In this document: in pieces, positions 36,403-64,000 of the stretch
Layout: each line of letters starts with the position of its first letter
Position numbering within the stretch: the stretch's first letter is position 1
Assembly: GCA_001662655.1 (NCBI GenBank)
Contig: KV460216.1
Strand: one strand, 5' to 3'
DNA from: Pseudogymnoascus verrucosus
Taxonomy: Eukaryota
DNA: 64,000 bases
Translations under genes and position numbers: made by a program
Notes under the pieces: model-generated
What the model saw: the letters and a program-made list of their open reading frames with translations, nothing else
What the model was told of the DNA's origin: nothing
Database searches by the model: none

Positions 36403-36509
36403 GGGCTCAACCGGGATTTGAACCCGGGACCTGTCACATTCAAGCATCTGTTCTTTGAGAACAGGGGATGAATCCCGAAGCAACAATCATACGACTAGAC
36501 CATTGAGCC
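36403..36509 (-). tRNA. tRNA-Pro(CGG) with ~35-nt intron
   Basis: GGCTCAA acceptor stem pairs with TTGAGCC; TGGTCTAGTCG A-box; GTTGC-TT-CGG anticodon arm; CCGGGTTCAAATCCCGG T-arm; downstream T-run terminator. Confidence 0.92.
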
Positions 36510-44773: not shown

Positions 44774-45467
44774 GTTGAGAGGTATTGAAAACGTTGAAAT
44801 GTGGGCGATATCATTGCCACTATTTTGGAAGATTGTTGCCTCATATACAAATTCACGGGTTTAGTTCCATTTTCATTAGTGCTTTCCTGTAGATGGCTAG
44901 AAAGGTCACCTGCGACGAATATATTATCAGATCACGCTGACCTTCCTCGATTGGCGGAAGTTCCCTGTATTCCACTTTAGGCTGAGGTAAAGTTGACTAT
45001 TTTCTTGTTTTGCGTTACGGCTAAATTGGGTCTATAATCGCGGTTCCAAAGCAGCGAATCTTAAGTTGCCATCATTAACAATCTTGTTTACTTGGCACTC
45101 ACCCACAGCAGAGATGACTGCCGTAAATATATTAAGCACACATGAAGCTAAGAAAGACGGCCAGTCCATTTGCTGAAGCTCCCACACAAACCGGCTAAGA
45201 AATAATTATCTCCGGGAGTACTATATTTAATTATATGAAATGAAATTAGCGTCATCAATATTTTGGTCACAAGCTTCGAAAGAACTGCCGAACATCAGAA
45301 GTTGTACTTCCGACTCTACTGTCGCAGAATTATCAAACGTAGGCAGTGAGCAGGACTTGGCATTCTACGAGGCTATCTTTCTTATCCTCTTTAAAGGGAG
45401 CTTCCTAAGACTTTTGAATATATTCCAAGCTCTCATCCTTAGCCAATCAGTCATGTTTGAGAAGTGG

Positions 45468-48400
45468 TTAGAAAACCGTGAAGAACTCCTTCCACTTTTC
45501 TTCCCACACCTTCTTAAGTTCATGCATCACTATTTTCTTGGGCGTATCCTCAGAAACCTCGATATAATCATGCCCCTTTCTGCAAACACCCAGGTTACTT
45601 CCTTTATTTATCTTTTGCCAGCACCTGTGACATAGAATGGTATTAGTGCAGTAGTAGCATAGACGGACTGGGTTGTCTTCGTCGAAGTTGTCCATCGTCG
45701 TGCCGCAGGGGCCATTGCATTCGACATTAATCTTAGAAGGTTTATGATTTGGTTTCTCCACTTTCCTAGACCTCGTCCGGTCCGCTTTCTCACGTTGCCC
45801 CCCATCATCGATATTTAAATCAGAACTGACCAGGCACCAGTTTTTGAACGCGGCTCTTGATTGTTCCTCTAGCCCTAGCAGAGCCAGAATTTTAGCAAGC
45901 ATCACGTAGCTTGGCTTGTCGTTGTAGATTACGTTGTCTGTCAGCGCCTTGTAGCAACTATGAAAGGTCTTGTCTACTTCCTCAAAGAATTTCTTCTCCT
46001 GCTTCGTACGTCGGTATATTATGGCAAGTGGGATACTCAGCGGCGACAAGGACACCTCAAAATCCGGGTCTTGTATGCCCGAAAACCATTTAATTACGTG
46101 TTCCATGCTGCCTTGTGCCTTCTCCTTTCTGCTTAAGTAGTCTTCAACTTCTTCGTTGGCCAACGGGCGGCAGAACTCCTCAAAGTAATAGTCCATTAGT
46201 TGCCAGCTTGCAAATGTCTTCGTCGCAAAACTAGCGTTTGTCGTAGGGTTTAGCACCAAAAGAAGATCCTTTACACTCTGCTCAGCCCACTCCTCCTTGC
46301 CGTCGGAACCCGGAAGACTGTAGAATCGCCAAAAGATAGCACGCCAAAGGAGTGTCGAGCCTAACAATTGACTGTTTTGCTGCTTCTCGAGGGTCTCAAT
46401 AGCTTTGTCGTATAAAACCTTGATTCTCTTAAGGACACTAGTATTTCCTTGCGCGCTGTATTGAATGAACTTATGTGTTTCTTTCTTGCATCCATCTGAG
46501 AGTTGCGTGTCGCTGACGCCATTTAAGAGCAGATGCATGTTGTCCCAATGACCCCGATTCCGCTCCGCTCGTTCCGCTATGTGCCTTACAATATCATCGA
46601 AGAAGGTTATTTCCGGGTACCCTGAAATTCTCCCGATAATTTTTTTCTCCTCTTCGAGACAGCTATTTAGCTTGATTTCAATTTTGAGTTTCAATTGCTT
46701 TGTCCTCTCAACTTTCTCTTTTCCCTTCTCTTTGTCTTTAGAGCATTTTTCTCCACACTTGACCGCTTCATCAAGATTCCTTAACGCTTCTCTAAGTTTC
46801 CCTTTGTCGTCTTTCCTAGGATATGAGTCTTCTACGTCACCGAAGTTAATACGACCGATCCTGTCATAAAGCTCAAACTTCGTCCATGGATCGTTTGGAG
46901 GATCATTTGGATCTAATTCTAGTCCCAAGTTGGCTTTTGATAAAGCCTCATCGTAGTGTCCATTATACCGCAAGGCCATCGCGAGGCACTTATAGTCTTG
47001 CGCGCTATATGACTTTCCCCATAAATTCTCTGAAACTTCCATGATAGAATCGGCTGTAATTTCCGCTTTAAATTCTTTACGGCCGGAATATCGAAGCATT
47101 TGATTGGCTAGTTGAAAGCAAGTGTAAGCCTCGACCGGAAATTTGCTGAATCGCCAATTCTGAGCATGCGCCCTAGCAATCTCTTTGCAAACATTTCTAT
47201 AACATTCGCTCCTACTTTGGCAACCTTCGCTCAAGTTTCGGCAACCGTTGCTCATCCTTCGGCAAAAGCTCTTGAGTTTCGCACGTTTAGGCCCATAGCC
47301 ATCCTCTTCCAGATACATGTTAGACCAATCCCAAATCGATTTCGCGATTTTGTCAGCATTTGTTCTGTTAATTTTTGTCTGGCTTTCGATCTTCGCTAGA
47401 GCGTCATTCCTTATCTCATCGACATCCAAGACATTAGAAATCATCATGATTACAGATTCAGCGCCTGGATACTCGTATTTTGTTTTGTGGGGGACACAAG
47501 TATTTAGCCTTAGGAGGTAGTCGCTCCATGACTTTGCGGCGTAAGAGGACAATTCCGCATCTGCCACATCTGCCGTAGAATTATATGCATCACTCTTTGC
47601 CATAGTGAGTACCATCGTAACCAGCTCAAACATCACTACTATGGGGGGTATCCGATCTTCGCTAGAATTACGGAGGAAGAAGGTTCGAAGCGATGGCTCT
47701 GAAAATGCGAGAAAGCTAGTATTGTCATACTCGTTTATCTTCGAATCTCGGTAATTGTGTTCTATCGCTGTCAAAAAATTCGGCGAAAGGGATAAGATCC
47801 TGTAAGTGTTAGAGCGTGCTAGGTTTTCGGTGTGAAATGTGAGGTTTCTCCTACCGAGACAAGGGACCGTCTAATTCATCGTCGATATCGATGTCTTCTC
47901 CATCTTCATGTTTACCCTTTTCCTTGATCCACTCATGGAGCCGTCGTATAGCACCCAGGGTAAAGCGATGCTCTGCATAGGCAAGCCATATCAAGATTTT
48001 TCTTCGCTGCTGGTACTCCTTTGCGCTGCGGCGACTACCAAACAATTGCTTGTAGATGTCATCAGTGCTTTCAGGTAGCTCGCCCCATTGAACCTTGAGC
48101 CACGTACTATTATTCAGTCCATGGAGGGTATGCTCAATATATGGAAAACCTAGGATTCGGTCAGCAAATCTAAGACTAGCTAAGTACGAGTTGGTAGGTG
48201 ACGTACTGTCAGCCTTGCTGCACACCTCGTCGATGATTATTGTCTTGCGATATTCCGGAAGCATCGAAAGCCTTTGCAAGGTTTGTAGGCGAGATTTCGC
48301 AAATATTTCCAAATCGTTCTTGCTTTCAGTTACATTCTCACGTCTGCTTCTAAATGTCAAATCGATGACTGCTGTCCTAGTTTCATCGGGCTGTTCCATT

Positions 48401-49911
48401 TCTTCTGAATTGTCTGATGCCAAAGAAATGGCAGGGTGCAACAGGATTTCCTTGAGCTTGTCGTTGATCTTGACCATTTCTGTGTAGGCCTCGTCGTCGA
48501 CCTTGATCTTTTCCATGTTGGCGCCATCTATCACTAAGAACATGCGTGTGTTCTTCACTCCCTCAGTTTTCTCAAGGAACAACTCTAGACATAAGTGATT
48601 CTTGATGTGTTTGTCTGTGCAGTTGCAAGTGTCCTGTTTTTTGTCCTCTCGCTCCTTCAAATCCTCAACGAGCCGTTTACGGTATTTATTATCCTGCATA
48701 GCAAACTGAAGCGCACAGCAACATATCATGTCTTGGACAGTGAAGCGCTTGCCGCTCCGATCTGCGAAGCTGAAGTAGGCCGTGAGAATTCTCTCTTCGG
48801 CCTCGGGTCGTTGTGCTATTAAGCTGTAGAAGATATAGAAGAGCAACATGCTTTTGCCACTCCAAGCGCCGCCTTTTATAATCAGTCGAGTGATTTCACC
48901 TTCCTTAAATTTCTTGAAATCCGCTGTCTCGTGCAACCAAAGACAAGTGTCTTGCATGAAGGCATACCCCATTTCCGCTATATGCTGTCTAAGAGACAAC
49001 TCAGCACCTGTAGAAAGTCGTTTTAGCGTGCCCTCTAATCCACTAAACCTTCTCTGTCCTAAGTCCGTCAACTTGTTTTCATAGGTGGTATCATTTGAAT
49101 TGTTTCTTTGAGAACGGACGCCACGGTATTCGCGCTCGGAATCGTTTCTGTGGTTTCCCATCACACCAAAAACAATGTCTTGCCGAGGCAACGTAGATAC
49201 ACTCCACAGTACCGTGCGAAGCAAACTCTGGGTCTCTCGAGACATTTCCTCCAAATTCTCTACTCCCCTGCCAGTTTGGACACTAATGCCAAGGGTGGCA
49301 GTGATGATGGCCGACTCGAAGTGGCTCATCTGATTGTTAAACTCGGCGTACGCTCCTGCTAGCCCGTCATCAGCCTGGAACAGCGTCTTGGTGAAAGTCA
49401 GCATGCGGCCAGCCTTCGTGAAAGTCTGCGCGATGGCACACATATTTAGAATTGTCCCTAACAACCGCACGAGCTGTGAGCGAAATGCGTTTTGAGGAGG
49501 CATCCTTTCTTGGAGAAGGGCCAACCTCTCACAGAAGATAATAACGGTTTCGTAGAAGCCGACAATCTGATCATACTTGTCGCTCACATTTTTGCATGCT
49601 CCAAGCACGAAGACAAGGGCCTGGCTAATAGTCGGGGCAGGCGGAAATGAGGCGCTTGCAATGTTGCCAGCCATGCCGACTAGAGTCTGGATGACACCCG
49701 ATAACTTCCCCAAGGATGTGCGAATTCTGTCTACCCATTTATCATTATGCCGAAAATCAAGGAATTTCTTTTGAAGTTCCGTTGCCTTCGTTGCAGGCTC
49801 ACTGCCAGGTTCAAATTTGTAGACGACTCCTGTGGTATTGTTATACTTCTTGATCGCCTCGTCCCAGATCGCCGTAAGGTCCGAATCTGCCGCTGGGATA
49901 TTGAGAGCCAT
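45468..49911 (-). CDS. NLR-like STAND protein: Goodbye-like N-terminus, NACHT-like NTPase, TPR-like region, C-terminal ZZ-like zinc finger
   Basis: DLTAIWDEAIKKY..F.FRH..ASASFPPA (Goodbye-like); TCLWL..IKGGAWSGKS Walker A; AYFSF; FLVIDG Walker B; C-terminal CNGPC..CYYC..LCHRC..C..H; introns ~48150-48206 and ~47800-47855. Confidence 0.8.
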
Positions 49912-50572
49912 GAGTGAACGAGGAGCAAGGTTCGCTTCTATAGGGGATATAATAGCTCTGTATTTTTTACAGCAGTTGAAGCAATATGTGCAAGTGTTGA
50001 TATTACAGCCGATAGGAACTCTTGGTCAATTTATTTTTATGTAACAATTGCCATTACATACATATACTGCGTTGGGCAGACCTGGAGAAGCACAATCGGT
50101 TGCATCAGGCAGGCTTGCAGGTGCATCCCGTTGCGTGTTTCTTCCGATACGGTTCCTGGAATCGGAGTATTATTTACCCGTTTACCACGTATTGTTCCTA
50201 GATATGGTTGCCTAAACTGTTTTTCGTTTTTCTTGGAGTTACACTGTACACAATGTGTAGAACTCTGTGTACACGAGATAGGGAACAGATCTTCCTAGTG
50301 CCAGTTCTGTGTTAACTCACTTCTAACGCTAGTTTATACGCGTAGTATTGCAGACTAGGTCACCGCAGCCTTACGTCCTTCATCAGCTCTTCTAAAACAA
50401 TAAAAATAAAAATAAAGCGGAGGTTTCCTACCACGACGCAGATTAGCCTTTCATTTTACCTCTAGTAAGTTCACGTCTAAGATATACTTATATGGCTTTT
50501 TCTTAACTTACTGCTAGAATACTGCAATATACTGTTTCTTTTATGACATAGTGTCACACCTACTCTTTAAAT

Positions 50573-52735
50573 ATGAGCAAACGGGCGAAGCGCAAAGCAA
50601 AGGAGATAACGATGTCCTCTGCCGGCTCTCAGAGCATTCAGTTCTACAATAAAGAAGGGAATATGTGCGAAAATACCTCTTTAGATGACCTGCGAGCTCA
50701 AAATAGTGAGCTTTGCAGTCGTTGCAACGGAATCGATATGGACAACGCATTAAAGGTTACGAATGATCAGAGTAGCCGCTTCATCATGCCTCTTGGAAAT
50801 ATCTCTGAGGATATGAAGTATTCTCTATGCCCACTTTGTCGCCTATTTTCTTTTACATTTGTCCCACTGGAGACTAAGCGATACCCTACTCTGAGAGGCC
50901 ATCACCTACGAGTGTTTATGGTTGATTCAACAGATATCAATACGATTAACTTTAGAGGACACGGAGTAGCTCTTGGAGTTTGCCAAGGAATTTTGGAAAA
51001 GAAGATAGCGGCTAAAGAACGACTGAGATGCCTTGCCAAGGGGTTTATTGCTCCCGTCTTCCCTCGGAATCCACACCCGAGTGCGCTTCAGCTGCAACTG
51101 GTTTCTAGAGGAAAAGTTGATTTTCAACAAATGCAAGCTTGGCTTCAGAAATGTCAAGATAATCATTCTGGAATTTGCGGACGAAAGACTGGCTCTCGTC
51201 CTATTGGTTTTAAATGCATTGATATCAACACCAGGTTGACTTGCTATATTAAGTCAGACGATGAGTATTATGCACTTAGTTACGTTTGGGCCACTTCAAA
51301 CACAGGCACTAGTGCTAAAGGTGTGACCGATGATGCTAGCGCACTGCCACTCTCCGGTGTGCCTCAAGTTATTGAAGATGCTATAGCTGTGGTGCGAGGT
51401 CTTGGAGGACAGTATTTATGGGTTGATAAGTATTGCATTAATCAAAAGGATCAAGATCAAAAGCAAACTCAGATTAACGCCATGGATAAGATTTATGAGG
51501 GTGCTATAGCAACAATTATCGCTGCTTCTGCAAAGAATTCGCCTCCTGGTCTGGCAGGTGTTAGTCGCCCCCGAATTCTGCAGCAACCTACTGAATTGGT
51601 TGGAAGTCATTTGCTGGCATCTACATTATCGCATATCTCTAAAGCTGTAGCAGCTTCTACTTGGGTCACGCGAGGTTGGACATACCAAGAGGCGGTCCTT
51701 TCCGAGAGGTGTTTTTTTTTTACAGACGAGCAAGTGCATTTTCTGTGCAGATGTTCGACTTCCTGCGAGTCTATTGCTGCGTCTCCAAAGGCAGTTATAT
51801 CGTCCCCTATAAGGGCAAGGACTAGGAATGATGCATGGAGCGTTAATGAAACAGCTGCTGGCCAAAACCTAACCGGCTTGTGGGACTTTTTCGACACCTT
51901 GCATCATTACAAAAGCCGGGATTTGACGTATGAGTCTGATTCTCTGAATGCTTTTCAGGGACTGCTAGCAAAGTCGAGCTTTAGGAACATCTGGGGGGTG
52001 CCAATTGCTTGCGATCCCGATCGAGAAGAAGCCGCCCTCTCTATTGGCTTTGCAAGAGGACTTTGGTGGGAGAATCCAGGAAACAACTGGAGCGATGTTC
52101 TGAAAGCTGAAGAAACGTACGTTTCATATACTCGACGTCCTAGTTTCCCAAGCTGGTCATGGGCTGGTTGGGGTGGTCCAACTCGGCCGCATAAATATTG
52201 TGGTGATAAGTCCTCTGATACTGGCTGCAACGAGGTGGACGATGAATCCTTCGATATACAGTTTTGGGTTGAGCTCACATCTGGCGAACAGATTTCTCTG
52301 AGTGAATTTTGTCACTTGACCAAAAAATCAAGCCAGGTTCCTCAACTGTCTCACATTTTACACATCGAAACAGAAATACACAAAGTAAGAATTCGTCGCC
52401 ATCCGCACCATCCAAAGTCTATGGCTTGCATTTGCGATTGTCCACTAGACTACAATCGATGCAATAAAAAGAAAAAGCATATGACGTCTACTCACAACGT
52501 CCGATTCTTCGAGGATCTAATGAGAAACGAAAGTTTTTCTGACGTCATCTTCTCTCAGTTCTGGGACGTTATTCCCCTTTTCACAGCTAAGGATTCAAAA
52601 TATTCAGTCTCAATTGCGTCGCTGATTATCGACTGGAATAAAGAGTCATCCGGTCTTGCTCAAGTTCGAGGGGTTGCATATCTTCACAGGAGATTATTTT
52701 TAGGTACTAGGCGCCTTAAGTTTCGGCTAACATGA
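50573..52735 (+). CDS. HET-domain (TOL-like) heterokaryon incompatibility protein
   Basis: YYALSYVW, PQVIEDAI, YLWVDKYCINQ, QINAMDKIYEGA..TIIA, WVTRGWTYQE..LSER, FPSWSWAGW; intronless 720 aa. Confidence 0.92.
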   Translation: MSKRAKRKAKEITMSSAGSQSIQFYNKEGNMCENTSLDDLRAQNSELCSRCNGIDMDNALKVTNDQSSRFIMPLGNISEDMKYSLCPLCRLFSFTFVPLETKRYPTLRGHHLRVFMVDSTDINTINFRGHGVALGVCQGILEKKIAAKERLRCLAKGFIAPVFPRNPHPSALQLQLVSRGKVDFQQMQAWLQKCQDNHSGICGRKTGSRPIGFKCIDINTRLTCYIKSDDEYYALSYVWATSNTGTSAKGVTDDASALPLSGVPQVIEDAIAVVRGLGGQYLWVDKYCINQKDQDQKQTQINAMDKIYEGAIATIIAASAKNSPPGLAGVSRPRILQQPTELVGSHLLASTLSHISKAVAASTWVTRGWTYQEAVLSERCFFFTDEQVHFLCRCSTSCESIAASPKAVISSPIRARTRNDAWSVNETAAGQNLTGLWDFFDTLHHYKSRDLTYESDSLNAFQGLLAKSSFRNIWGVPIACDPDREEAALSIGFARGLWWENPGNNWSDVLKAEETYVSYTRRPSFPSWSWAGWGGPTRPHKYCGDKSSDTGCNEVDDESFDIQFWVELTSGEQISLSEFCHLTKKSSQVPQLSHILHIETEIHKVRIRRHPHHPKSMACICDCPLDYNRCNKKKKHMTSTHNVRFFEDLMRNESFSDVIFSQFWDVIPLFTAKDSKYSVSIASLIIDWNKESSGLAQVRGVAYLHRRLFLGTRRLKFRLT

Positions 52736-52956
52736 ATGCTCTATGCTATAATGTCTCCTCCGTATCAAGTTCAGCTTTTTCTGCATAGTTATGTTATACG
52801 AAGTTAATATTATGTAGACAACTTTATATATACCGCCAACTTTAGATCTGCTGCATAGATGGTTCAAAAAAAAAATCTGAAATTCTTGCTTTACCTAAGT
52901 CTACATATTTTGTGTCACATATAGACTGATACAGCTAGCTTTGCGAGTGAAGAAAT

Positions 52957-54309
52957 CTAGATTACAGCCCCTGCCATTGCAATATCTAAAAGATGCTGAA
53001 TACGGCCTTTCACAGATTCATTAAAAGCCTCGCACTTTAAATCATTCTCGATTTCTTGGCGTAAAGATATGAGCTCGAGAGTCTTTGGGGTGTCCTTTGC
53101 GGTCTGTGTAGTGTCTCCTACAGTCTGTGGGCTGTCTTCGAAGATTGATGCGCTAGAGTCAATAGAAGCTTCGGAAGAATCCTGATCTTGGGATTGGGCT
53201 TGAGTATGTACATCAATTGCTCTCTGTCGTGCGCGATCATACAAAAGCGAAAACTGTGCCTTCTCATAATCTCTAGAGCGGCAATATTCTCTGCTGTATT
53301 CTTCTCTGAGTGAGATTTGCAATTGTTCAAAAGAACTAGCTGTATGAAATCGGAGCCTTTGCACAACCATTGAATGAGGTCCACATAGATGAATTCGATT
53401 TTGTTTACAAAACACTCTCAATTCGCGTGTATTGTAACAAGTCAGAGCATCGCTGATCAAAAATCGGGGTCTGCCATTTGCAATTGCCCTTGTTTGAGGT
53501 TCGAATATATTCATGAACCATTTCATGGTAATCTTTCTATCCAGATAGCCATTCCTGGATTGATTGTGGTGACAGTTAAGAACATGGCTGAGTGTTTGAT
53601 TTCTCTCGGCGTCAGTTGGCGAAATGATCAAGGGATTTATAAATCGACCGTCCATACTACTGCATTCAATGGTGGTAACAACCTTTCCTTCTTTATTGGC
53701 GTCCAAATAAGCGCGTATCGTATCCTCGCTGACAATTTCCGGAATTATTGCAGGAAATTTTAGTATGCCCCCTGTAGTAATAACGTGGTATGTGTTCTTA
53801 TTTAACGCCTTTAACGTGTCGAGTTTCGGTGATATGATGTTGATCCATGCATCTATATTATCGTAGATGTGCTGATCGCATTTTTTTGTGTTCTTTGCGA
53901 TTTTCAATGCGTTTTTTAGCGTAGGATGCCGTTTGTAGAATGCCGCCGACCAATTCTTTCCAGGCATGCGAACATCATCACCCTCTGGCTGATATTGGTG
54001 AACGGGTTCAATTGAATTGCGTTGGCGCTTAACATGATGAGCTATTTTTCGTATAAAGTTTCTTGGGGGACGATGCCCCCTCTGAGCCATAGACAACAAG
54101 CAAGTAGCAATTACTTTTTCTTCCTCATATGTCAAGTATTGTCTATCGTAGGCAGCTTCTCGTGTTGATTGGCGTCCAAGGTTCCGATGGCCTAAAGAAG
54201 TGAAATGAATCCCGCTCTTCAGGGAGAGATCCCTATATGTTATCCCGCGTGAATACCCATACTGGCTAAGCCAAGCCGCCGCCTTGTCAATTTCTAGGGG
54301 TTCAGCCAT
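52957..54309 (-). mobile_element. Fot1/pogo (Tc5 HTH + DDE_1) transposase-derived ORF, catalytically degenerate
   Basis: RQYLTYEEEK..GHRPP..PGKNWSAAFYKRHP (CENP-B-type HTH); VTTIEC.S.DG...PLII, NGY....WF..IFEPQT, RPRFLISD; no TIRs found. Confidence 0.8.
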
Positions 54310-54962
54310 AAGATCGATGCGAAAACGAGTATATGCCGAGCGTTAGGATTCGGAATCAGTACATGGTATTAAAAGATTTATGAGGACCTGGGATAAGATC
54401 ATTTAATTTTAAATCGCTTCAGAGCGTGATGATTCTGGTTTATATGTTGGGGACCCTGGCCCGTACAAGGCAGCTAGATGCACTGCCACCTGTCGTCCCT
54501 GTCAGTAGGTACAGTAAGGTGACGACGACATAGAAAGGCTGAGACACTATTCTGACTCAAAAATTTACTTCGCCCCTCCCATCCCTGAGGCAGCAAGGAT
54601 CTAGAATACACGTCACAACCTTTTAGCACGATTGATGGGAAGAAAAAACACGTACAATAGCAGATATCCGCTTAGTAGTCAGGCCAAGGAGAGTTGGGCA
54701 TCCAGTTCGCCTTGTTCAGTAATTGGGTAAGGTTATTCCATGGCTTAATGCCTCACCAAAACCATTCCCCGTTACCAGCGTAGCCTTCGCATCTCCACTC
54801 AAGCATTGCTGCTCTTTGCTACACTACTACTGGAAACCCCGTGGGGCAGCCGTTAGCGGACTGTGAGGAAGTGGGTGCTAGAAGACGCGAAATAGTTTGT
54901 TAATTTGGTTGATTCTGAAATCTGCCTCACCGCCTTGGTGAAACCTGTATTCTGTGCGCAGC

Positions 54963-55381
54963 TAGGCTGCGCCACGGGGGACCGACCCCAGACCGGACCA
55001 TGGTCTGGTCTGGTCCTAAATTTTTAGACCGGACCGTGGTCCGGCCTGAAGCCTCTAACCCACGGTCCCCCCACGGTCTGCCAAGAAACCGTTCAAAATA
55101 TAGCAGATGTACTGCTATACCTATTTTATAGGTAAAGGTACTTTATCATGTGATAAAGAGTTATAGTAGTATATTATGATTCGTCACGTGACAAAGCACC
55201 TTTACATATAAAATAGGTGTAGTAGTACATTTACAATATATTAAACGGTTTCTTGGCAGACCGTTGGGGGACCACACCGGTCTGGGCGGTTCGCCCTCAT
55301 TTTCCAACCCAGACCGCGGTCCGGGTTGGAAAATGTTCAGACCGCCGGTTTAGAACCACCGGTCCCCCATGACGCAGCCTA
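54963..55381. mobile_element. MITE / foldback element (419 bp), hAT-like TAG ends
   Basis: 22-bp TIRs TAGGCTGCGCCACGGGGGACCG (20/22 match), 7-bp flanking direct repeat GCGCAGC, internal 90-bp inverted arms 55064-55153 and 55184-55273. Confidence 0.9.
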
Positions 55382-55842
55382 GCGCAGCCTTGTCGCCGCC
55401 TGGCTTTTCTCCTCGATGCCCAAAATGAACAGATAACACATCACTAGTTGCCCGGGTTGCAGTGGATCCACTGCGCTGTACTGCAACCTGGCAACTAGTG
55501 ATGTCTGGTGATATACTATAGAAAAGAACGATACCGCCTCGAGAGTTCATTAGCACATGGTGTGAATTCAGGTGAGTTTCCTACAGCCGATAGTCGGTTA
55601 CAACATATGGGGCTAGATTATCAACATCATAAATTAGGGAAGCCAAACCGCTTGGCACTTTTCAGGTTTCAGTTAATGCATGTTTCCGTATTAGCTAACC
55701 ATTTACTTGCTTTAAGCGCTTGTTGAGCCCTGCTCATGTCCGACGGGCACGAGAGACTAGGCATCAACCGGAAAAACTCACAAAAAACTCACAAAAAGCG
55801 GCACTGGTACTTGTAACTTGTTATGGCTACCCCCCTCAATAA

Positions 55843-55864
55843 TCTTTGATGGTCTAATGGTCAT
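55843..55864 (+). other. 5' fragment (nt 1-22) of tRNA-Asp, att-like remnant
   Basis: TCTTTGATGGTCTAATGGTCAT matches 62803-62824 at 21/22; the upstream flank is also homologous. Confidence 0.85.
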
Positions 55865-56015
55865 ATAGACCATCCATAATTTGGGTGCATCCTGTTGCGT
55901 GTTTCTCGAATGCTGCTTTTGGTTTTCGCCATTTCGGTTCCTGGAATCGGAGAATGGTTTTCCCGCTTACTAGGAAGGTGCACAGCTTCTGGTAAACCAG
56001 AAACAATTTTCTAGT

Positions 56016-56060
56016 TCTTAGATTTATACGTCTTAGATTTATACGTCTTAGATTTATACG
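56016..56060 (+). repeat. 15-bp perfect tandem repeat x3
   Basis: TCTTAGATTTATACG repeated three times. Confidence 0.95.
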
Positions 56061-56454
56061 CTTTATACATTAGCTGTTTCCTAGATTCACGAAACGGTTT
56101 TCTCAATCTAGAACGTAAGGCCGCTTTCTCCATTTTTAGATGCAGCCTTGGTTATGCTAGTATAGAGTGAGAGAGTGGCCTTTCTTTATATACACTAGGG
56201 TCATCGCCTGCCCCCTTTTATCGCTGAGTAATATGAGCCCTCTTCTAAACTCTCTTGTCTTCTTTTATATTTCTGCTCCTGTTGCTTTCACTCCTCATTC
56301 AGGAATCTCTACCCCTTCAGTTCTCGCTACATCTAACTACCTGCAATGATACCTGGCGATAATGACTGGCTTCGTTCTCAATTTGCTGGGTTGGGGGCAT
56401 CGCCAGTGCCAAAACAGTAGCCTGTATGAGCAAAAAAAGAGATTACAGGTGGGA

Positions 56455-56607
56455 AATCGACCAACCATCCCCCGCTTCCAGGAAGCCGCTGTCGTGATCA
56501 AAAACACGGGATGCGGCTGTTAGAGCGGCCCGAGGCAGACATCACAATCGACCAACTGTCTCCCGTTTCCATAAAGCTGTCGTCACGTGACAGGGTGCGT
56601 CTCTAGA
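56455..56607 (+). repeat. ~91-bp repeat unit, two tandem copies (a further copy lies at 62482-62586)
   Basis: AATCGACCAACCATCCCCCGCTTCCAGGAAGCCGCTGTCGTG at 56455 and a variant at 56546. Confidence 0.85.
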
Positions 56608-56819
56608 CTCAGGAATAAAAGTTAGTCAACGTTACAGAATTTGTATCATGACCTAGTAATTTAATCACATAAACTAGCCAGTAATGAGCGCTAAATCACA
56701 AGGACTTATAAAATAGCTTAACCTAAAAAGACCATTAGAATATCCTGCTATTACTCATTAGGTGCTCTGATCTAGGACTAGGCTGGAGCCAAAGAGTATT
56801 CTTCTCATTCCGTGCGATC

Positions 56820-59800
56820 TTAACCTGTAGAAGATAGTGCGTGCCCTTCGAGAGTCTCGGCGATCAAATTGTGCCCTTTCATTAAAGCTTTTGCGAGAGG
56901 CATAACGCCATCGTTGTCTGGTATATGAAGGTCCGCATTTTTGCATAGTAGCCACGCCACAGCTTCGTTATGTCCATTCGCTGATGCCCACCAAAGAGGC
57001 GTACGACCGGTCAGATCTTGAGAGTTCACATTTACTACCCCTAGCTTAAAGAGGGTGGCCAGGACAGGGACATGGCCTTCTCTTGCAGCTAGCGCGAATG
57101 GAGTTTGGCCAGAACAATCTGCAAAATCTAGCTCCTTATGGCTCTGCGCCAACAGAAGAGAAACAATCGCAACATCCCCGTTATACGCTGCTGTATGTAA
57201 GGCGTATTTAAACCAGCCACAAGGGACATCTGTCCTCATCCCGTTGCTAAGTGCCAACTTAACTATATACTCATTGTGTGCTTCCACTCCCTCGTGGAAT
57301 GCCTTGATCTGAGCTCCACGCTCGAGTAGAACCTGCGCCTTTGCGTTAATATTCAGCGACAGTATATGTTGGATGGCCGTGAAGAATTGATTAAGAAGGT
57401 TGATATCGGCTCTCGCCTCGAGCAGCTGCGTGACAACGGCAGCGTGCCCTCTATACGCCGCCGCCTGCAGAGCATTGTCGTATTGTCCTCCCTGTGCGTT
57501 GACATTAGCTCCTGCCTTAAGCAGCTGCGTGACGACAGCCGCATGCCCTCCATACGCCGCCGCCTGCAGAGCGTTGCCGTAGTGTCCGCCCTCTACGATA
57601 ACGTCAGCTCCCGCCTCAAGCAGCTGCAGGACGACGGCAGCATGCCCTCTATACGCCGCTGCCTGTAGAGCGTTGCCATGTTCTCCGCCCTGCGCGTTAA
57701 CGTCAGCTCCTGCCTCAAGCAGCTGTGTAACAACGGCTAGGTGACCACTATACGCTGTCGCCTGTAGAGCGTTGCCGTAGTGTCCGCCCTGCGCGTTGAC
57801 GTCAGCTCCTGCCTTAAGCAGCTGCGTGACAACGGCAGCATACCCTCCATACGCCGCTGCCTGCAGAGCGTTGCCATGTTCTCCGCCCTGCGCGTTAACG
57901 TCAGCTCCTGCCTCAAGCAGCTGCGTAACCACGGCTAGGTGACCACTAATCGCTGTCGCCTGTAGAGCGTTGCCGTGGTGTCCGCCCTGCGCGTTGACGT
58001 CAGCTCCTGCCTCGAGTAGCTGGGTGACAACGGCAGCGTGCCCTCCATGCAACACCGCCGTCGCCTGTAGAGCGTTGCAGTACTGCCCGCCCTGCGCATT
58101 AACGTCAGCTCCTGCCTCAAGCAGCTGCGTAACCACGGCTAGGTGACCACTATACGCTGTCGCCTGTAGAGCGTTGCCGTAGTGTCCGCCCTGCGCGTTA
58201 ACGTCAGCTCCTGCCTCAAGCAGCTGCGTAACCACGGCTAGGTGACCACTATACGCTGTCGCCTGTAGAGCGTTGCCGTGGTGTCCGCCCTGCGCGTTGA
58301 CGTCAGCTCCTGCCTTAAGCAGCATATTAACCAATATCCTATTTCCTTTTGTAGCAGCAGCTTGAAGGGCATTCCCCGATGCTCCTGTGCTCTCATTAAC
58401 ATCGGCACCGCGATGTAATAAAAGTCGTAACATCTCTTCATGCCCATTTCCAGCTGCGCACTCTAGCGCTGTACTGTCGTTCCTACTCTTTGCCCCTATA
58501 TCAGCGCCAGCATCAATCAAAATTTCAGCCAAGACTTTGTGGCCCCAGCGTGAAGCATAGTGCAATGCTCGATTACCAGCATCATCTTCTTCATTTATAT
58601 TTACATTATCACGTTGGAGAATTTGGACGACGCTTCGAAGATTTGAGCTAGATGCAATGTGTAATAGGGTGGAGCCAAGCTCGGGGCATTTTGCGTTTCC
58701 TTGGAAATCTATTTTCCCATAGATTTTTACCCAGGTCTGAAAAGCTGGTCCTGGAGGGGATCCGAGTTGCTGCACCAAGTCCTGTTGTGAAGTTCCAAAA
58801 CTTTCGGCCTTTTCCGCATGCAAGAACCAAAACTTTGTGGCATACCTCAGAAATGGAAGATTCTCTAAACGTGACGATACATCCGTGTAGCCGAAGTCTT
58901 TATGGTCGGCCAATTCTGAGCCACCAACAAGGACTTCCTCCAACCTCAAATAGTTAATACATGACTTAGACAGCCGACCCTGACTTTGGCCGATAATATC
59001 ATCCATCGATGAGGAGAGATCCTTTAGACCGCCAGATAGGAGGAAATCGTTGACTGATTGATGGATAAATTGTACGGTGGTTTTGAACATATGATGCTTA
59101 ACCTCAACAAGGCCACCAGACAGGCTTCTGATCAGTCTCTCCATACGCGCATCAGTGTCCACAAAGTCCTTTGCTTCTTTACAAGATTCTCGTGCTGGAT
59201 GAATATACAGGTCATCTGAGGCTATCGCAAACCGTAGCTCTGTCACTGAGAGTGGTACCTCAGCTAGGCAAATCCACTGCATCAGATGAAATGTTCTTGT
59301 GCGATTCCGATGATCGATGACCTCCCTAAAGATGTGTTCGTAAACGTCGCCCAGGTCTGTTGGTACCTTGCTTAACTCTTTGTAGATATACTGTAATGAC
59401 TCTCCTTGTTGATTGAGATCAACGACTAGTGGAACAACAAGACGTGCCCACTGGAATACTCCTGAAGCTCGCGTCACAATAGTTCCTTCAAGTTCTTGGA
59501 ATTCGTCAATTGAAAGGCCCACCATGTTCATTTCTTGAATTCCAGAGTTGAGCCTGTGCTTGACGTACTTTGTAATGTCATTGTGGTTTTCGTCTTCAAC
59601 ACAGATTTCCAAACTGTTGTTGGCCGCTACTATCGGATAATGACGACATGAGATGCAGATTCTTGAAGCGCCTTTCATAGCTGCAAGTTTATCGTTTAAG
59701 TCGTGGAAGTACATAGCAAGATCTCGCGCAACAATGCTGCCAGCCTCATCTAGTGCGTCCACGAAGATAGTTATCTTCCATAACTTAGCGGAGTCAATAA

Positions 59801-61847
59801 GAGCGTTCGAGAAAAGGTCCTTCAATTCTTTGCACTGCCATTCCCAACTAGTTCCAGCCTTGCCAAAGCTCTTTTTCTCTTTAAAGGCAGTCTGTATTGG
59901 CAATCTCACCAATGGAATCTTTGTGTATATTTGATATAAAAGGGATCGAAACATGCCGATTGGAGTTTTTTGTAATGCAGCACCCCGCCCATGGAAGAAG
60001 AACTCAAGACCTATGCGTTGGTTTAAGAGAAAATTGTCCTGGGATGCCTGGAATTCCTGATAGAGGAACGCCATCAAGGTAGACTTCCCTGCGCCAGGCT
60101 TTCCTTTTATCCAAAGAAGTTCACGTTCCTTGCTTATCCACTTTGTATAGGACCTATGTTGCAATATCCACTCACACGTATGTAAATGAGCTTGGTCTGC
60201 CTCCTGCCGTCGGTAGGTAATCTCAGGAAAAGCGAACGACTTAAGGCAATCTTTCTAGGGTTAGAATTGCAGCTCCTGTGATATAACGGAGGGTCGAAGC
60301 ATACCATTATCTTCGGAAGTCATTTCCTCCTTCTCTAGGTTGATAAATTATTCAGTAAATTCCTGTAGCATAGATCCAATTTCACGGGCGATCAAGGAGA
60401 CATAATTAGTTATCGTTACCTTTGGTGGAAAATGTCACACGAGGAATTACCAAGACAGCAACAGACATCATTCGCTTCAGCACAGCGAGAACCCTTTCAT
60501 AGTCCTCATCGTTACTAGAGAACTTGACCAACTGTGAATGACTTCTTTTCAGTGCCAAACAGTGATGCGCTTCATTCTCCCATGGGCGGCCGTGCCTTGC
60601 GGATGAGCTATCGACCAAGATGCTAAGCGGCCCCGTCATCTTCCACTTCTCTCCATCCTAGAAGAAACCGTTAGAAGAAACCAACACTTAGAACATCGTG
60701 CTTACCTTAGCTGCAGTTGGCGACATTTCAGTTTCAAAGAAGCAGATTATTTCTGAGTCTTGATGGCCGAAGGCTTTGGGGAAATCTCTGCACTGGTTGC
60801 GCAGAATCTGTGATTCTTTTCCGAGCGAATGTAACAGACCTTGGTTAGGTTGATCTTTGACTAATGGAATAAGAGAAGTAATCTCCATTCCCTGACTTGG
60901 TACACCGAAAAAAAGCGCACCATATATAGAATCAAGCAAAGCATGGTGATTCTTGTCGCGCTTCATTTGTATTATAGCTTCTTTGACTATGAGGCCCCCA
61001 AGACTGTGGGCAACAAATATCAATGGTACTGTCTTAGGCTTGGTATGTTTAGAGTCTTGTGTAGTTAGGGTCTGAAGATCTGATCGTAACAGGCTCCCCA
61101 GTGCTTCAAGGTCTTGAAAAGTGTGACTATCATGCAGTTGGGTGTCATAGCCGTAGATCATGACTCGGGCGCCGGTAAGATCGGAGGGAAGTGAATCGCG
61201 CAACCACATATGTGGTCCTGCTCGCTCTTTGAAGGACCCAAAAGCGTGCCCGCCAAGCCCCGAGATCGCAACGCAGCTAACTCTGTCAGCCATGTAATTC
61301 CCGCCAAGTACGCAAAGATACCTACTCGATCTTGTGCTCTGCGACATTCTTGAAGGATCGAAATATTGTGATGCCTCTGAAGTGGCTATCGATTGTAATC
61401 GTAGGTGCCTTGGGAATGATATCGTCATCGTCGTCGCTCTCAGCATCGCTGTTGTCAACATCAGGGATCTCAAAAGACCACTCCTTTCGGTCTGATGACA
61501 GACAGGGAGGTGGGTTTTGGAAATTGACGGTGGCCATCTTAGTCTTCTGGTTAGGACTGATGGCTATCGACTTGACTTGAACCGTGCCCCGAGCTGCATC
61601 AAGTCCTAAGACTGATCGAAGCAATTCCTGGACCTGTCGCAGCTTATATTCCAGTGGTATTCCTCGCACCCGATATGTAACCTGCGATATTTTTGCATTA
61701 GCCGGCGGGTAAGCTATGGATGTCTTGATGTACTCATAGATTAGACTCAACATGAGTTTCTTGATTTGGTGTTAGACTTACAGACTCCAAGTCATTCAGC
61801 TTCCGTTTTTTTGATCCATTGCTATACTGAGTCGCATAGCTAGTCAT
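56820..61847 (-). CDS. NLR: SesB-like alpha/beta hydrolase + NACHT + ankyrin repeats
   Basis: VAISGLGGHAFGSFK, MWLRDSLP, FVAHSLGG (SesB/PGAP1-like); TCEWIL..LLWIKGKPGAGKST, IFVDALDE, ICISCRHYP; nine near-identical 33-aa ankyrin repeats; start MTSYATQYSNG inferred from splice phase. Confidence 0.9.
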
Positions 61848-62481
61848 ATTGTCAAATTATGAGAAGATCATAGAGTTAGGTTTGAATCTGCCTTTCGAAC
61901 TGTCTTCGAAGTTTCAAAACTAAATCGAGAGTAGTTCTTGTAAGATACTTTTTGGTACGCTGAAGGCTGTGGCTATATTCTCCACGACGTGTCAAAGGGT
62001 TGGTGCTTCAGCCGCATCCCAATATCTATTTATAGATACCACTAACAACTGACTTAACCGGATCTACCCTTACTATCAAGTGACTTCCTTGAGCGCTTAA
62101 TTTGGAGGTACCTACCCATGTGGCGACGTTGTATGGCAAAACTCCGTAGTCACCATAAGGCTGAAAATGATTTGTTAGCATCGTGGTGAGGCTCGGAAAC
62201 CTAGACCAAAGTGTTCTATGAGTTAAAAGACGCAAAGAGCTCGTGGTGATGCTACAGGTCGAGGGGTTCTATTATACTTCGAATTGACGCAACGCCCTCC
62301 GCAATTAGGTGCGACGGCATACTTGTAAATTTCAATGTAGCTGGGGCTTGAACTATTCAAGAGTAGTCACATAACATGACTGACACAAAAATGCTGGAAT
62401 TTTCAATGGATTCACAAATTTAGAATCAATTGAATTCAAAGTACTAATGGCTCGTCTTGAATCGTTAATTTGGCACAGCAA

Positions 62482-62586
62482 GTAATCGAAGATACAGGAT
62501 GCGGCCATTCGATTCGAGAGGCCTGAGGCAGATTTGGTAAATCGACCAACCATCCCCCGTTTTCATGAAGCTGTCGTCGTGTTCAG
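62482..62586 (+). repeat. Direct-repeat copy of the 56455 unit
   Basis: ..ACAGGATGCGGC..GGCCTGAGGCAGA..AATCGACCAACCATCCCCCGTTTTCATGAAGCTGTCGTCGTG. Confidence 0.85.
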
Positions 62587-62802
62587 TGGCTTGTAGACCC
62601 CACGCCACAAAGGACGGGAAGCAAGAAGCCGTATTGTGCATAATTCTAAAAACAGTCTTTTATGCTAACGAGAAACTGAAGTCGGGAATTAGAGAATGAC
62701 AAAACCCGATTCCAGGCATCAACTTTTTGGTTGCTAGCTCCGGAAAAACTGACGAAAAGCAGCGCCAGTTCTTCTTTTCCGTTACCCCGTTTCCGACAAC
62801 AA

Positions 62803-62884
62803 TCTTTGATGGTCTAACGGTCATGATTTCCGCTTGTCATGTGACAAAGCGCGGGAGACCGGGGTTCGACTCCCCGTCAGAGAG
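62803..62884 (+). tRNA. tRNA-Asp(GTC) with ~10-nt intron
   Basis: TCTTTGA/TCAGAGA acceptor stem, TGGTCTAACGG A-box, TCCGC-TT-GTC-A anticodon arm with TGTGACAAAG intron, CGGGGTTCGACTCCCCG T-arm. Confidence 0.92.
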
Positions 62885-63383
62885 AATTTCCTCTCTGAGC
62901 TCATGGCTCAGAATATATTTTTGCTTATTTTTTTGTTTTATCGCTGAAGCCATTCAGTTTTAAACCGTTATTTCAATACCTTTTTTGGAGCTGTGTCGAA
63001 GCTGCGAGGAGGGTAAACTGGTTAGCGTACACGAAGAGCAGGCGACTCTCTTCACGCTCAGAAAACAGGCTCCAGGGCATCATATCAGGGTCCTGCCAGG
63101 GAGAGAGTATTGAGGATAGCGCGCTTAGCCAAATTCCCCCCAGTTGACAGTGGTGAAACAGGTCTAAGATGGCCGTGGGGTGCTCTCCTACCAACTAATA
63201 CTACTATTTTCATATCTACAGCGTCGGAAAACTATCACTTCGTTCACATTAATCTGCGTCTATTATATACATCGCAAGATAATCTCTTCCTCTACACTTT
63301 ATATATCATCGCAACGCAGCGCCGCCCTGGCGACAAGGGACCATTCTATCTACGTCGCCTTTCGCGACGCGTCGATCAAAGTG

Positions 63384-64000
63384 ATGTCAACACTATCCAC
63401 TTTCCACCTCTTCCCCAGCCTCCCCGTCGAGATCCGCCTCAAAATCTGGTCTTTACTCCTCTCAATTCCTCGATCGGTAAGATGTACCCAAAACATCATA
63501 AGTCATGCCGCCCCTCGCGTTATCAAAGTCTGGGATACCGATACTCCATCCCCGCCTCTTCTCCACGTGAACCGCGAATCTCGGTACGAAGCCCTCGCCG
63601 TCTATGCACCATATTTCGCCACCCCTTCTAATCCACGACCCATATATCTCTCCCTCCCTCAAGACGTGGTCAGGTTCACGGATGGCCTCCTGCCTTATAT
63701 CCCCGATGGACCCCTGAATGAGATCCAGCATATGATTACGGATACGAAAGATTGTGCTTATTTTGGGTACTATCACATGGGCACTCTAAAGAGCATGAAG
63801 AGGCTGAGGGAGCTGGAGATATATGCAGAGAAGGGCCTAGTCTATGGAGGGGATGATACGGATCGGTTTATTAATTTGCTCGTGTCAGAATTTGAGGACG
63901 CGATGGAGGCTGATCCAGGGTGGGAATGTCCAAAAGTCAGGATTGTCGATGCGCAGACAGGAAAGGACTTGAGGTTTATTGAGGGTGGGGCAAAAATACC
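63384..64000 (+). CDS. 2EXR-domain protein; 3' end runs off the window
   Basis: Open frame absent from the ORF track: MSTLSTFHLFPSLPVEIRLKIW..PPLLHVNRESRYEALAVY..IYLSLPQD. Confidence 0.85.
   Translation, partial: MSTLSTFHLFPSLPVEIRLKIWSLLLSIPRSVRCTQNIISHAAPRVIKVWDTDTPSPPLLHVNRESRYEALAVYAPYFATPSNPRPIYLSLPQDVVRFTDGLLPYIPDGPLNEIQHMITDTKDCAYFGYYHMGTLKSMKRLRELEIYAEKGLVYGGDDTDRFINLLVSEFEDAMEADPGWECPKVRIVDAQTGKDLRFIEGGAKI

Follow-up and report, generated by a model that had tools for sequence, protein, structure and literature searches.

The last part of a 64,000-nucleotide stretch of Pseudogymnoascus verrucosus DNA (contig KV460216.1, assembly GCA_001662655.1; hereafter the window) contains an interval that is bordered on both sides by tRNA-Asp sequence and encloses a single gene for a NOD-like receptor (NLR). 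The right border is an intact tRNA-Asp(GUC) gene of 82 nt (62803-62884, plus strand; anticodon GTC in the DNA), with an intron after the anticodon loop, and it is the one tRNA that ARAGORN finds in the window. The left border, 6,960 bp upstream, is a copy of nt 1-22 of this gene (55843-55864, plus strand), agreeing with it at 21 of 22 positions. The NLR gene between them (56820-61753) lies on the minus strand, its 3' end facing the fragment, and is read from three open reading frames (ORFs): 61322-61753, with no Pfam family; 60688-61473, a DUF676/alpha-beta hydrolase; and 56820-60164, an NPHP3_N NACHT-type NTPase with ankyrin repeats. The first-pass annotation of this DNA, which had read one SesB-NACHT-ANK gene here, was right about the single NACHT-ankyrin gene, while its SesB label was not recovered, as Pfam returned DUF676. 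It had also proposed an element that integrates into a tRNA gene and restores it, and this proposal finds support in a junction that recurs in many fungal contigs, in intact tRNA genes downstream of it, in neighbouring DUF3435 recombinase genes, and in contigs that look like empty and occupied forms of one locus.

The tRNA-Asp gene is identical in sequence to tRNA-Asp genes on public metagenome contigs, such as that at locus L009; Rfam at its gathering score does not list it. Its nt 1-22 form a direct repeat with the upstream fragment, in which the fragment would be the left, attL-like junction and the intact gene the right, attR-like junction of a restored target. As originally noted, 55841-55864 matches 62801-62824 at 23 of 24 positions, and a repeat finder extends the match to 55837-55864 and 62797-62824 (26/28, 92.9% over 28). 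When up to three mismatches are allowed, the window has two occurrences of the 22-mer formed by tRNA nt 1-22, one at 55843 (one mismatch) and one at 62803 (none), while 100 dinucleotide-preserving shuffles of the window have no occurrence. The abrupt end of identity seen at first pass is also confirmed and falls after tRNA nt 22, with no B box, tRNA 3' half or trailer homology following the fragment. A likeness of the tRNA intron and anticodon region (62836-62850) to 55183-55197 and 56582-56596 was rejected, as its 21.1 bits lie within the shuffle range of 21-27 and reflect chance around a CACGTG-type palindrome. Just past the tRNA, the acceptor 3' strand recurs in inverted form in the trailer (62877-62898; TCAGAGAG ... 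CTCTCTGAGCTCA) and yields a hairpin, which is also present in many metagenome tRNA-Asp genes, with or without the repeat-type leader described below.

Upstream of the fragment, the leader L1 (55759-55842, plus strand) is related to the leader of the intact tRNA. Two motifs are paired between them, AGGCATCAAC at 55759 and 62714 and CCGGAAAAACT at 55768 and 62740. The alignment of leader and fragment together (62744-62824 with 55783-55864) reaches 69.5% over 82 nt and 45.4 bits, where 30 shuffled queries score at most 26.8 bits, so that the relationship of the leaders stands as first claimed.

Public metagenome contigs were scanned exactly for the tRNA 5' 22-mer, with C or T allowed at position 16, giving at least 124 matches at at least 117 loci (cited here by L-numbers). 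Most of the listed matches are ordinary tRNA-Asp genes with varied introns. At 22 of the 124 listed matches (16 distinct sequences), tRNA identity ends at the same base as in the window fragment, and the sequence continues as (A/T/G)TAGAC..., in which the tRNA 5' end is repeated in inverted form. A fuzzy search added two more decayed fragments, at L022 (three mismatches) and L014 (changed spacer). Downstream of the junction, blocks resembling GGATGCATC and GCTG(C)TTTT are common to several fragment classes and the window, at +40 to +95; the upstream leaders are wholly different between classes, which indicates one kind of junction in many genomic contexts. The fragment is not a random truncation. 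The same contigs contain tRNA-Asp genes in which, in addition to the usual intron after the anticodon, the T-arm is interrupted by a second insertion of about 50-55 nt (L013, L015, L035, L050, L053, L066 and L093; L042, L047 and L078). These insertions lie at about +70 to +125 from the tRNA start and have spliceosomal-looking ends (GTAAGT or GTTAGT ... CTAAT ... AG), after which the tRNA 3' end resumes. In L037, L036 and L072, degenerate copies of the tRNA 5' end are found at most 45 nt upstream of an intact tRNA-Asp gene, L037 having nt 1-15, then 24 nt, then the full gene; such short copies may be footprints of lost insertions.

At the junction itself, the window carries an inverted repeat (GATGGTCTA / TAGACCATC, 55848-55874) with 9-bp arms and a 9-nt spacer. 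In less decayed relatives the arms are 12-13 bp long and surround CGGTCAT, perfectly so in L059, L061, L071 and L096; the perfect arms elsewhere measure 13 bp in L014 and 6 bp, sometimes split, in the largest fragment class (class 2). To judge from the sequences, this palindrome is a putative core site of a recombinase, and its inverted arms, together with the direct repeat of 22 nt at the borders, have the form of a Starship boundary. An alternative is that the fragment and its hairpin are a selected, tRNA-Asp-derived RNA polymerase III gene or a protein-binding palindrome, for instance a small hairpin RNA or a TFIIIC/insulator site, situated in NLR- and transposon-rich regions. Such a function would suit the retention of the A-box part of the tRNA, the good preservation of the stem (the 13-bp arms of L014 are perfect though its loop has changed), and the T-runs that accompany the conserved blocks at +40 to +95 in several classes. 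However, the stem is decayed in L022, the window and class 2, and no Rfam family is found in 55600-56500 at a permissive threshold, the best E value of 3.6 being at chance level. A selected hairpin also leaves the pairing with intact tRNA genes, the captain genes and the empty and occupied contigs unexplained, all of which a mobile element explains, and it is regarded as very improbable. A resemblance of the fragment to an RNase P/MRP-like leader was likewise rejected, as the GGAAAGTCC-like motif of class 1 aligns with non-conserved positions in other classes.

Six of the metagenome loci (L071, L014, L059, L057, L073 and L063) have a gene or pseudogene for a DUF3435 tyrosine recombinase, the captain of Starship elements, within about 1 kb of the 22-mer. 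In the fragment-side layout, the captain follows the fragment. At L071 the read-through translation on the fragment strand matches DUF3435 with E values of 1.5e-8 (profile 108-210) and 6.2e-12 (212-362), both scoring above the Pfam cut-off, at a computed +1,447 to +2,261 from the first base of the fragment. An ATG-initiated frame common to L059, L071 and L096 begins about 190 nt after that base. L014 (+0.84 to +1.8 kb after the fragment) and L059 are homologous to the L071 captain (tblastn, best E 2.8e-20), although the L014 read-through has no DUF3435 match by Pfam. In the tRNA-side layout, found at three loci, the DUF3435 gene adjoins an intact tRNA-Asp gene and is divergent from it, 0.3-0.9 kb from nt 1. 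At L057, ORFs match DUF3435 with E values of 4.2e-13 and 3.4e-6, and the weaker match is joined to a Myb domain. The homologous N-terminal pieces have their start about 0.7 kb from tRNA nt 1; next to them, an open frame in which no match is detected extends as near as about 0.34 kb. At L073 the match (E 3.9e-26) lies 336 nt from nt 1 of a minus-strand tRNA, and at L063 it is found by tblastn (E 9e-22) 0.9 kb upstream of the tRNA. Read from the other strand, the fragment-side captain also points away from the TTGATGGTCTAA arm of the palindrome, and the two layouts may differ only in the direction in which its asymmetric spacer faces. As a crude control, all six captain-like regions start within about 1 kb of the 22-mer, while 18% of the 800,751 bases searched lie that near; the corresponding 0.18^6 is about 4e-5, for six loci that are not independent of one another. 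By their Pfam DUF3435 membership, these captains are candidate members of the Starship recombinases.

Both ends of the window interval have counterparts in this family. On the left, the terminal region R (55884-56011, plus strand) is homologous to the L071 stretch between fragment and captain gene: 55902-56011 aligns with L071 +51 to +159 at 64.6% over 113 nt and 35.4 bits (100 shuffles: maximum 24.0). Three 15-bp tandem units (56008-56065) follow as filler where relatives carry the captain gene, with no protein family found in them. On the right, a tRNA-proximal terminal repeat (62142-62802, plus strand) includes the subrepeat D2c (62482-62585) and the leader L2 (62681-62802). Of this leader, 62681-62794 aligns with -127 to -10 of L005 at 70.7% (E 1.5e-9), L005 being the tRNA that lies, on one contig with it, at the opposite end of the L071 element; it also matches L065, L060 and L010. 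The leader is part of a repeat of about 470 nt with subrepeats of about 90 nt, present at 70-87% identity upstream of L005, L010, L014, L024, L025, L039, L060, L065 and L070. This repeat precedes only some tRNA-Asp genes of one assembly; those at L009, L040, L044 and L073 of the same assembly have unrelated, TATA-like leaders. Since the window interval has both ends of the L071-L005 element, it can be taken as a member of that family without a captain. The first-pass description of a small non-autonomous element accordingly gives way to what looks like a remnant of an autonomous Starship-type element, whose left end still resembles the stretch before a captain gene. The trans-acting recombinase that had been postulated with it is not needed for the anatomy, and there is no sign that the window copy is still mobile. 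Further end-like pieces occur upstream in the window, namely a partial second copy of region R at 50120-50190 and a third, partial copy of the tRNA-proximal leader at 45253-45298 (36.8 bits; shuffles, maximum 26.8). These two pieces bracket a Goodbye-NACHT NLR, which is followed by a HET gene, and may be left over from earlier insertions into the same tRNA.

The recurrent junction and the homologous ends bear directly on whether the fragment is simply the upstream copy of an old, decayed tandem duplication of tRNA-Asp, truncated by an unrelated event and involving no site-specific integration. Tandem or paired tRNA-Asp genes do exist (L022, L073 and L115), the two leaders of the window are only about 70% alike, and no empty allele has been found at the window locus. 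A duplication of this kind, however, predicts homology through and beyond the tRNA on both sides. In the window the homology goes no further than nt 22, and the tRNA 3' part is present a single time. Sixteen further distinct sequences, their leaders unrelated, have the same breakpoint and inverted arm; beyond the breakpoint, the DNA shows homology to the stretch before the L071 captain gene; and the leader is a repeat found at many loci rather than a local duplicate. Tandem duplication is thus already disfavoured and considered quite improbable.

Among nine fragment loci with at least 3 kb of downstream sequence, five, including the window, have an intact tRNA-Asp gene on the same strand downstream, at distances of 0.2-13.8 kb: 6,960 bp in the window, 6,577 bp at L014, 3,152 bp at L022, 13,767 bp from L071 to L005 and 198 bp at L020.

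A set of three contigs whose public names have a common assembly prefix (L041, L061 and L057) provides a view of the target itself. The L041 contig is unbroken from 422 nt upstream of a tRNA-Asp gene to 2.2 kb downstream. The L061 contig starts 103 nt upstream of the gene, matches L041 without a difference over exactly 126 nt, as far as tRNA nt 23, and then continues as a fragment junction. The L057 contig has 3.5 kb of different DNA, sharing no base with L041 immediately before nt 1, and is then identical to L041 for exactly 126 nt from tRNA nt 1, where it ends. L061 and L057 do not overlap each other, and the set has its junctions at nt 1 and nt 23 of the tRNA. In an assembly graph, two forms of a single locus produce overlaps of the same length at both junctions, and the 126 nt would correspond to the assembler word length minus one. 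On the strength of these overlaps, L041 looks like the empty form, and L061 and L057 like the two sides of the occupied form, with more than 5 kb between tRNA nt 22/23 and a second copy of nt 1-22/23. As L057 is the right-hand contig of the set, the insertion would carry its own captain.

Taken together, these observations make it probable that 55843-62884 is a decayed, captain-less Starship-type element in tRNA-Asp(GUC), which left the tRNA restored and now encloses an NLR gene. There is in addition a slight leaning towards a wider proposition, that the Pezizomycotina host one or more widespread DUF3435 lineages which behave like the tRNA-integrating islands of prokaryotes, with a palindromic core containing nt 1-22, insertion in either orientation, rebuilding of the tRNA, serial stacking, and NLR and other genes as cargo. 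In such elements, the attachment site would consist of inverted 12-13-bp arms, TTGATGGTCTAA and its complement, around the 7-nt spacer CGGTCAT, of which one arm and the spacer equal tRNA nt 1-22. The DUF3435 recombinase would bind the arms and recombine this core with the tRNA-Asp gene, the crossover splitting the gene after nt 22/23. The left junction would then comprise the host leader, tRNA nt 1-22 and the inverted arm of the element, which together give the fragment. At the right junction, the copy of nt 1-22 brought by the element would be joined to the remainder of the tRNA, rebuilding the gene behind an element-borne leader, from which it would presumably remain expressed and active. 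All DNA between the junctions would be element DNA, in the window the alpha/beta-hydrolase-NACHT-ankyrin NLR gene; this copy would have lost its captain, and its inverted arm would have eroded to 9 bp. Insertion would be neutral for the tRNA and would leave the site open to further insertions. The element-type leader in front of the window fragment suggests a landing in a tRNA already restored by an earlier insertion, so that leader L1 would be what remains of an older element's tRNA-proximal end. A reusable site would explain both this leader and the end-like debris further upstream.

Several results weigh against this interpretation. No recombinase or transposase is found by Pfam in read-through translations of both strands of 55865-56900 and 61700-62802, and tblastn with pieces of the DUF3435 captains has no match in the window, in agreement with the earlier report that the interval holds no mobility gene. 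The interval, at 7 kb, is also far below the size of described Starships. In class 2, no captain is found by Pfam in the short contigs of L030, L052, L055, L068, L032 and L077, which instead contain a PD-(D/E)XK nuclease domain, an NLR-like gene, a kinase start and a Tf2 fragment. Four of the nine fragment loci with sufficient downstream sequence (L030, L052, L077 and L002) have no intact tRNA-Asp gene within 4.9-10 kb downstream. L020 is a misfit, its fragment being preceded by a repeat-type leader and the intact tRNA, 198 bp on, by a TATA-like one, and L014, whose spacer differs from the tRNA while its arms remain perfect, would suit a selected hairpin as well. The empty and occupied forms are built on contig overlaps rather than on reads or strain genomes. 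NLR-like genes are weakly enriched near fragments, occurring at 3 of 14 fragment loci and 2 of 60 others (one-sided Fisher p = 0.044).

Alignment of contigs from four related organisms (B, C, D and J) to window positions 50000-64000 adds to these reservations. Organism B is colinear throughout, with the fragment included. No empty allele of the window locus appears in the four organisms, and the joint from 55864 to 62825 that the first-pass annotation had looked to as an empty site is absent from the 15 joints listed, besides which there were 27 others. Two joints that might have been taken for empty sites, 56499 to 62606 and 62585 to 56450 (X5), were rejected as repeat artefacts, since they fall on the D2 subrepeat and have short sides of 22 and 50 letters. 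The NLR gene is present in C, D and J, one contig of organism D having 121 differences over 3,902 bases; the tRNA flank is also present in these three, on contigs separate from the NLR. The contigs end inside the tRNA, as expected for a multi-copy gene. Contigs of organism D do not cover 55604-56070, nor those of organism C 50000-54669, holes which prove nothing and from which no inference is drawn. The conservation in B, C, D and J indicates that the arrangement is older than the divergence of these organisms. In three of the related organisms, contig depth summed over 62142-62608 is higher than in the neighbouring bins by a factor of 5-18, which shows that these genomes have the stretch upstream of the tRNA as a dispersed repeat.

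The main residual doubt concerns the NLR gene as cargo, and with it whether the window copy ever moved as a unit. The subrepeat units D2a and D2b (56450-56591, plus strand), of the type found in the tRNA-proximal terminal repeat, match 62482-62585 at 84% over 51 nt and 73% over 97 nt, are possibly debris of another element end, and mark the interval as composite, so that the NLR need not have come with the element. The ends could accordingly be real debris of tRNA-Asp-targeting elements around a composite interval, in which the NLR is ordinary chromosomal or later-arrived DNA. In keeping with this are the position of the tRNA-proximal subrepeats, which occur twice more beyond the NLR gene, the end-like pieces around another NLR and a HET gene, the richness of the region in NLRs and transposon debris (including a DDE_1 ORF and a MITE-like palindrome, described below), and the 97-99% identity of the NLR across the four related organisms. 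Against a composite origin, the two recognizable ends flank the NLR in an order and orientation that match the L071-L005 element, L002 and L038 have NLR-type genes, and L030 ankyrin repeats, immediately inward of the fragment, and NLRs are known accessory genes of Starships (PMC9156397, in the part available). Independent arrival of the NLR is judged unlikely, though it deserves more weight than either a tandem duplication or a selected hairpin.

Comparison with Starships rests on portions of the papers cited. In these, the Starships of Pezizomycotina, especially the Voyager, Enterprise and Arwing families that target 5S rDNA, have DUF3435 as the first gene at one end, pointing inward (PMC9156397, PMC11162782); the related loci described above show this arrangement, and the window shows no captain. 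Direct repeats with short inverted repeats at the ends, a multi-copy RNA polymerase III gene as target, NLR accessory genes, the persistence of decayed remnants without a captain and, in some families, insertion in either orientation at palindromic sites are further points of likeness (PMC9156397, PMC11162782). NLR, PLP, FRE and DUF3723 genes are given as conserved accessory genes (PMC9156397); the window has one NLR in its interval, with a HET gene and two more NLRs just upstream, and no DUF3723, FRE or patatin domains among the window ORFs scanned. Starships are reported to target 5S rDNA (23% of 222 curated sites, with disruption of the gene), AT-rich DNA and short motifs (Starship papers including PMC9156397 and PMC11162782), whereas the target here is tRNA-Asp and not 5S rDNA, AT-rich DNA or TTAC(N7)A. 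Unlike the disruptive 5S-rDNA Starships, the insertion here rebuilds its target gene, and its direct repeat of 22-23 bp is longer than the 2-16 bp reported (PMC9156397, PMC11162782). The intervals described here also differ in measuring 0.2-13.8 kb and in being decayed. Starships are usually tens to hundreds of kb in size.

No tRNA target for Starships was found in the open full-text literature, the scope of the search, subscription papers lying outside it; the result is thus one of not found rather than not published. In the available portions of the Starship texts (PMC9156397, PMC11162782, PMC13004909 and the Tangerine and Peltigera preprints), tRNA appears only in an analogy to integrative and conjugative elements (ICEs), in tRNAscan methods and in unrelated annotation, and the bacterial ICE/tRNA analogy of PMC9156397 is drawn for target stability only. 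The junction motifs are absent from the searched part of the supplementary tables of PMC11162782, which possibly does not cover the direct-repeat table. The first-pass annotation knew of no such system; Starships carrying NLRs are in fact known (PMC9156397, in part), and what is apparently new is the tRNA target and its restoration.

A close parallel in architecture is provided by the bacterial and archaeal islands, ICEs and prophages that enter tRNA genes by means of tyrosine integrases, in which the core of the attachment (att) site is also part of a tRNA, with the fragment at one border and the restored tRNA at the other. Like the elements described here, tRNA-integrating islands have an integrase gene beside the border; they also undergo serial insertion at one tRNA and carry adaptive or defensive cargo, as is proposed for the present elements. 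Unlike them, the present elements reside in a eukaryotic nuclear genome and have a DUF3435-family recombinase. Most prokaryotic tRNA integrations duplicate the 3' part of the tRNA, whereas the duplicated part here is the tRNA 5' end (nt 1-22), which brings a new upstream leader. Cryptons are likewise fungal nuclear elements with a tyrosine recombinase and short identity with the target, but the genes found here are DUF3435 by Pfam; Cryptons are small elements that have neither cargo nor long direct repeats, and no targeting of tRNA genes by them is known.

Short interspersed nuclear elements (SINEs) derived from tRNAs and the Helenus elements, miniature retrotransposons with terminal repeats (TRIMs) whose tRNA-like sequence lies within the long terminal repeats, are dispersed repeats that also contain tRNA-like sequence and an A box (PMC10886601, PMC5063351, both as available in part). 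In contrast to these, only nt 1-22 are kept here, the flanking leader is shared with real tRNA genes, and the partner copy is a fully functional-looking tRNA gene. The interval has no pair of long terminal repeats (LTRs), primer-binding site or polypurine tract, poly(A) tail or short target duplication. The fragment was accordingly rejected as a retrotransposon primer-binding site, SINE head or Helenus LTR, given its shared leader, the lack of a B box or LTR and its pairing with real tRNA genes (PMC10886601, in part).

Large-scale horizontal gene transfer in filamentous fungi is, as far as is known, carried mainly by Starships. If the interpretation given here is true, a family that targets tRNA genes and repairs them through 22-23 bp of identity would represent, in eukaryotes, the equivalent of the strategy classically used by bacterial islands, and the long conserved leader of some tRNA-Asp genes would be explained. 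Elements and remnants could then be recognized in any fungal genome by a tRNA 5' 22-mer followed by its own inverted copy, and tRNA-Asp genes would be hotspots of turnover in the fungal immune repertoire of NLRs. The palindromic core and the intact-looking captains of related contigs make the mechanism directly testable.

Ordinary genes fill the first 40 kb of the window. They are followed by a TPR-repeat ORF (40963-42336), an ORF with a weak TPR match (45468-47774) that adjoins the Goodbye-NACHT ORF (47851-49911), a HET-domain gene (50573-52735) and a DDE_1 transposase ORF (52957-54309); a 2EXR gene lies downstream of the interval. At 36403-36509 on the minus strand, Rfam reports a tRNA of 38.1 bits with a long insert, where ARAGORN makes no call. 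Among the metagenome loci, L030 has a broken PDDEXK_12 (PD-(D/E)XK nuclease) frame on the fragment strand, +1.5 to +2.4 kb after its fragment, and a Helitron-like N-terminal fragment with ankyrin repeats on the opposite strand. Between the DDE_1 ORF and leader L1, a palindrome resembling a miniature inverted-repeat transposable element (MITE; 54961-55383) has 24-nt terminal inverted repeats and an inner 90-nt inverted repeat, and in each of the related organisms it is covered by several contigs.

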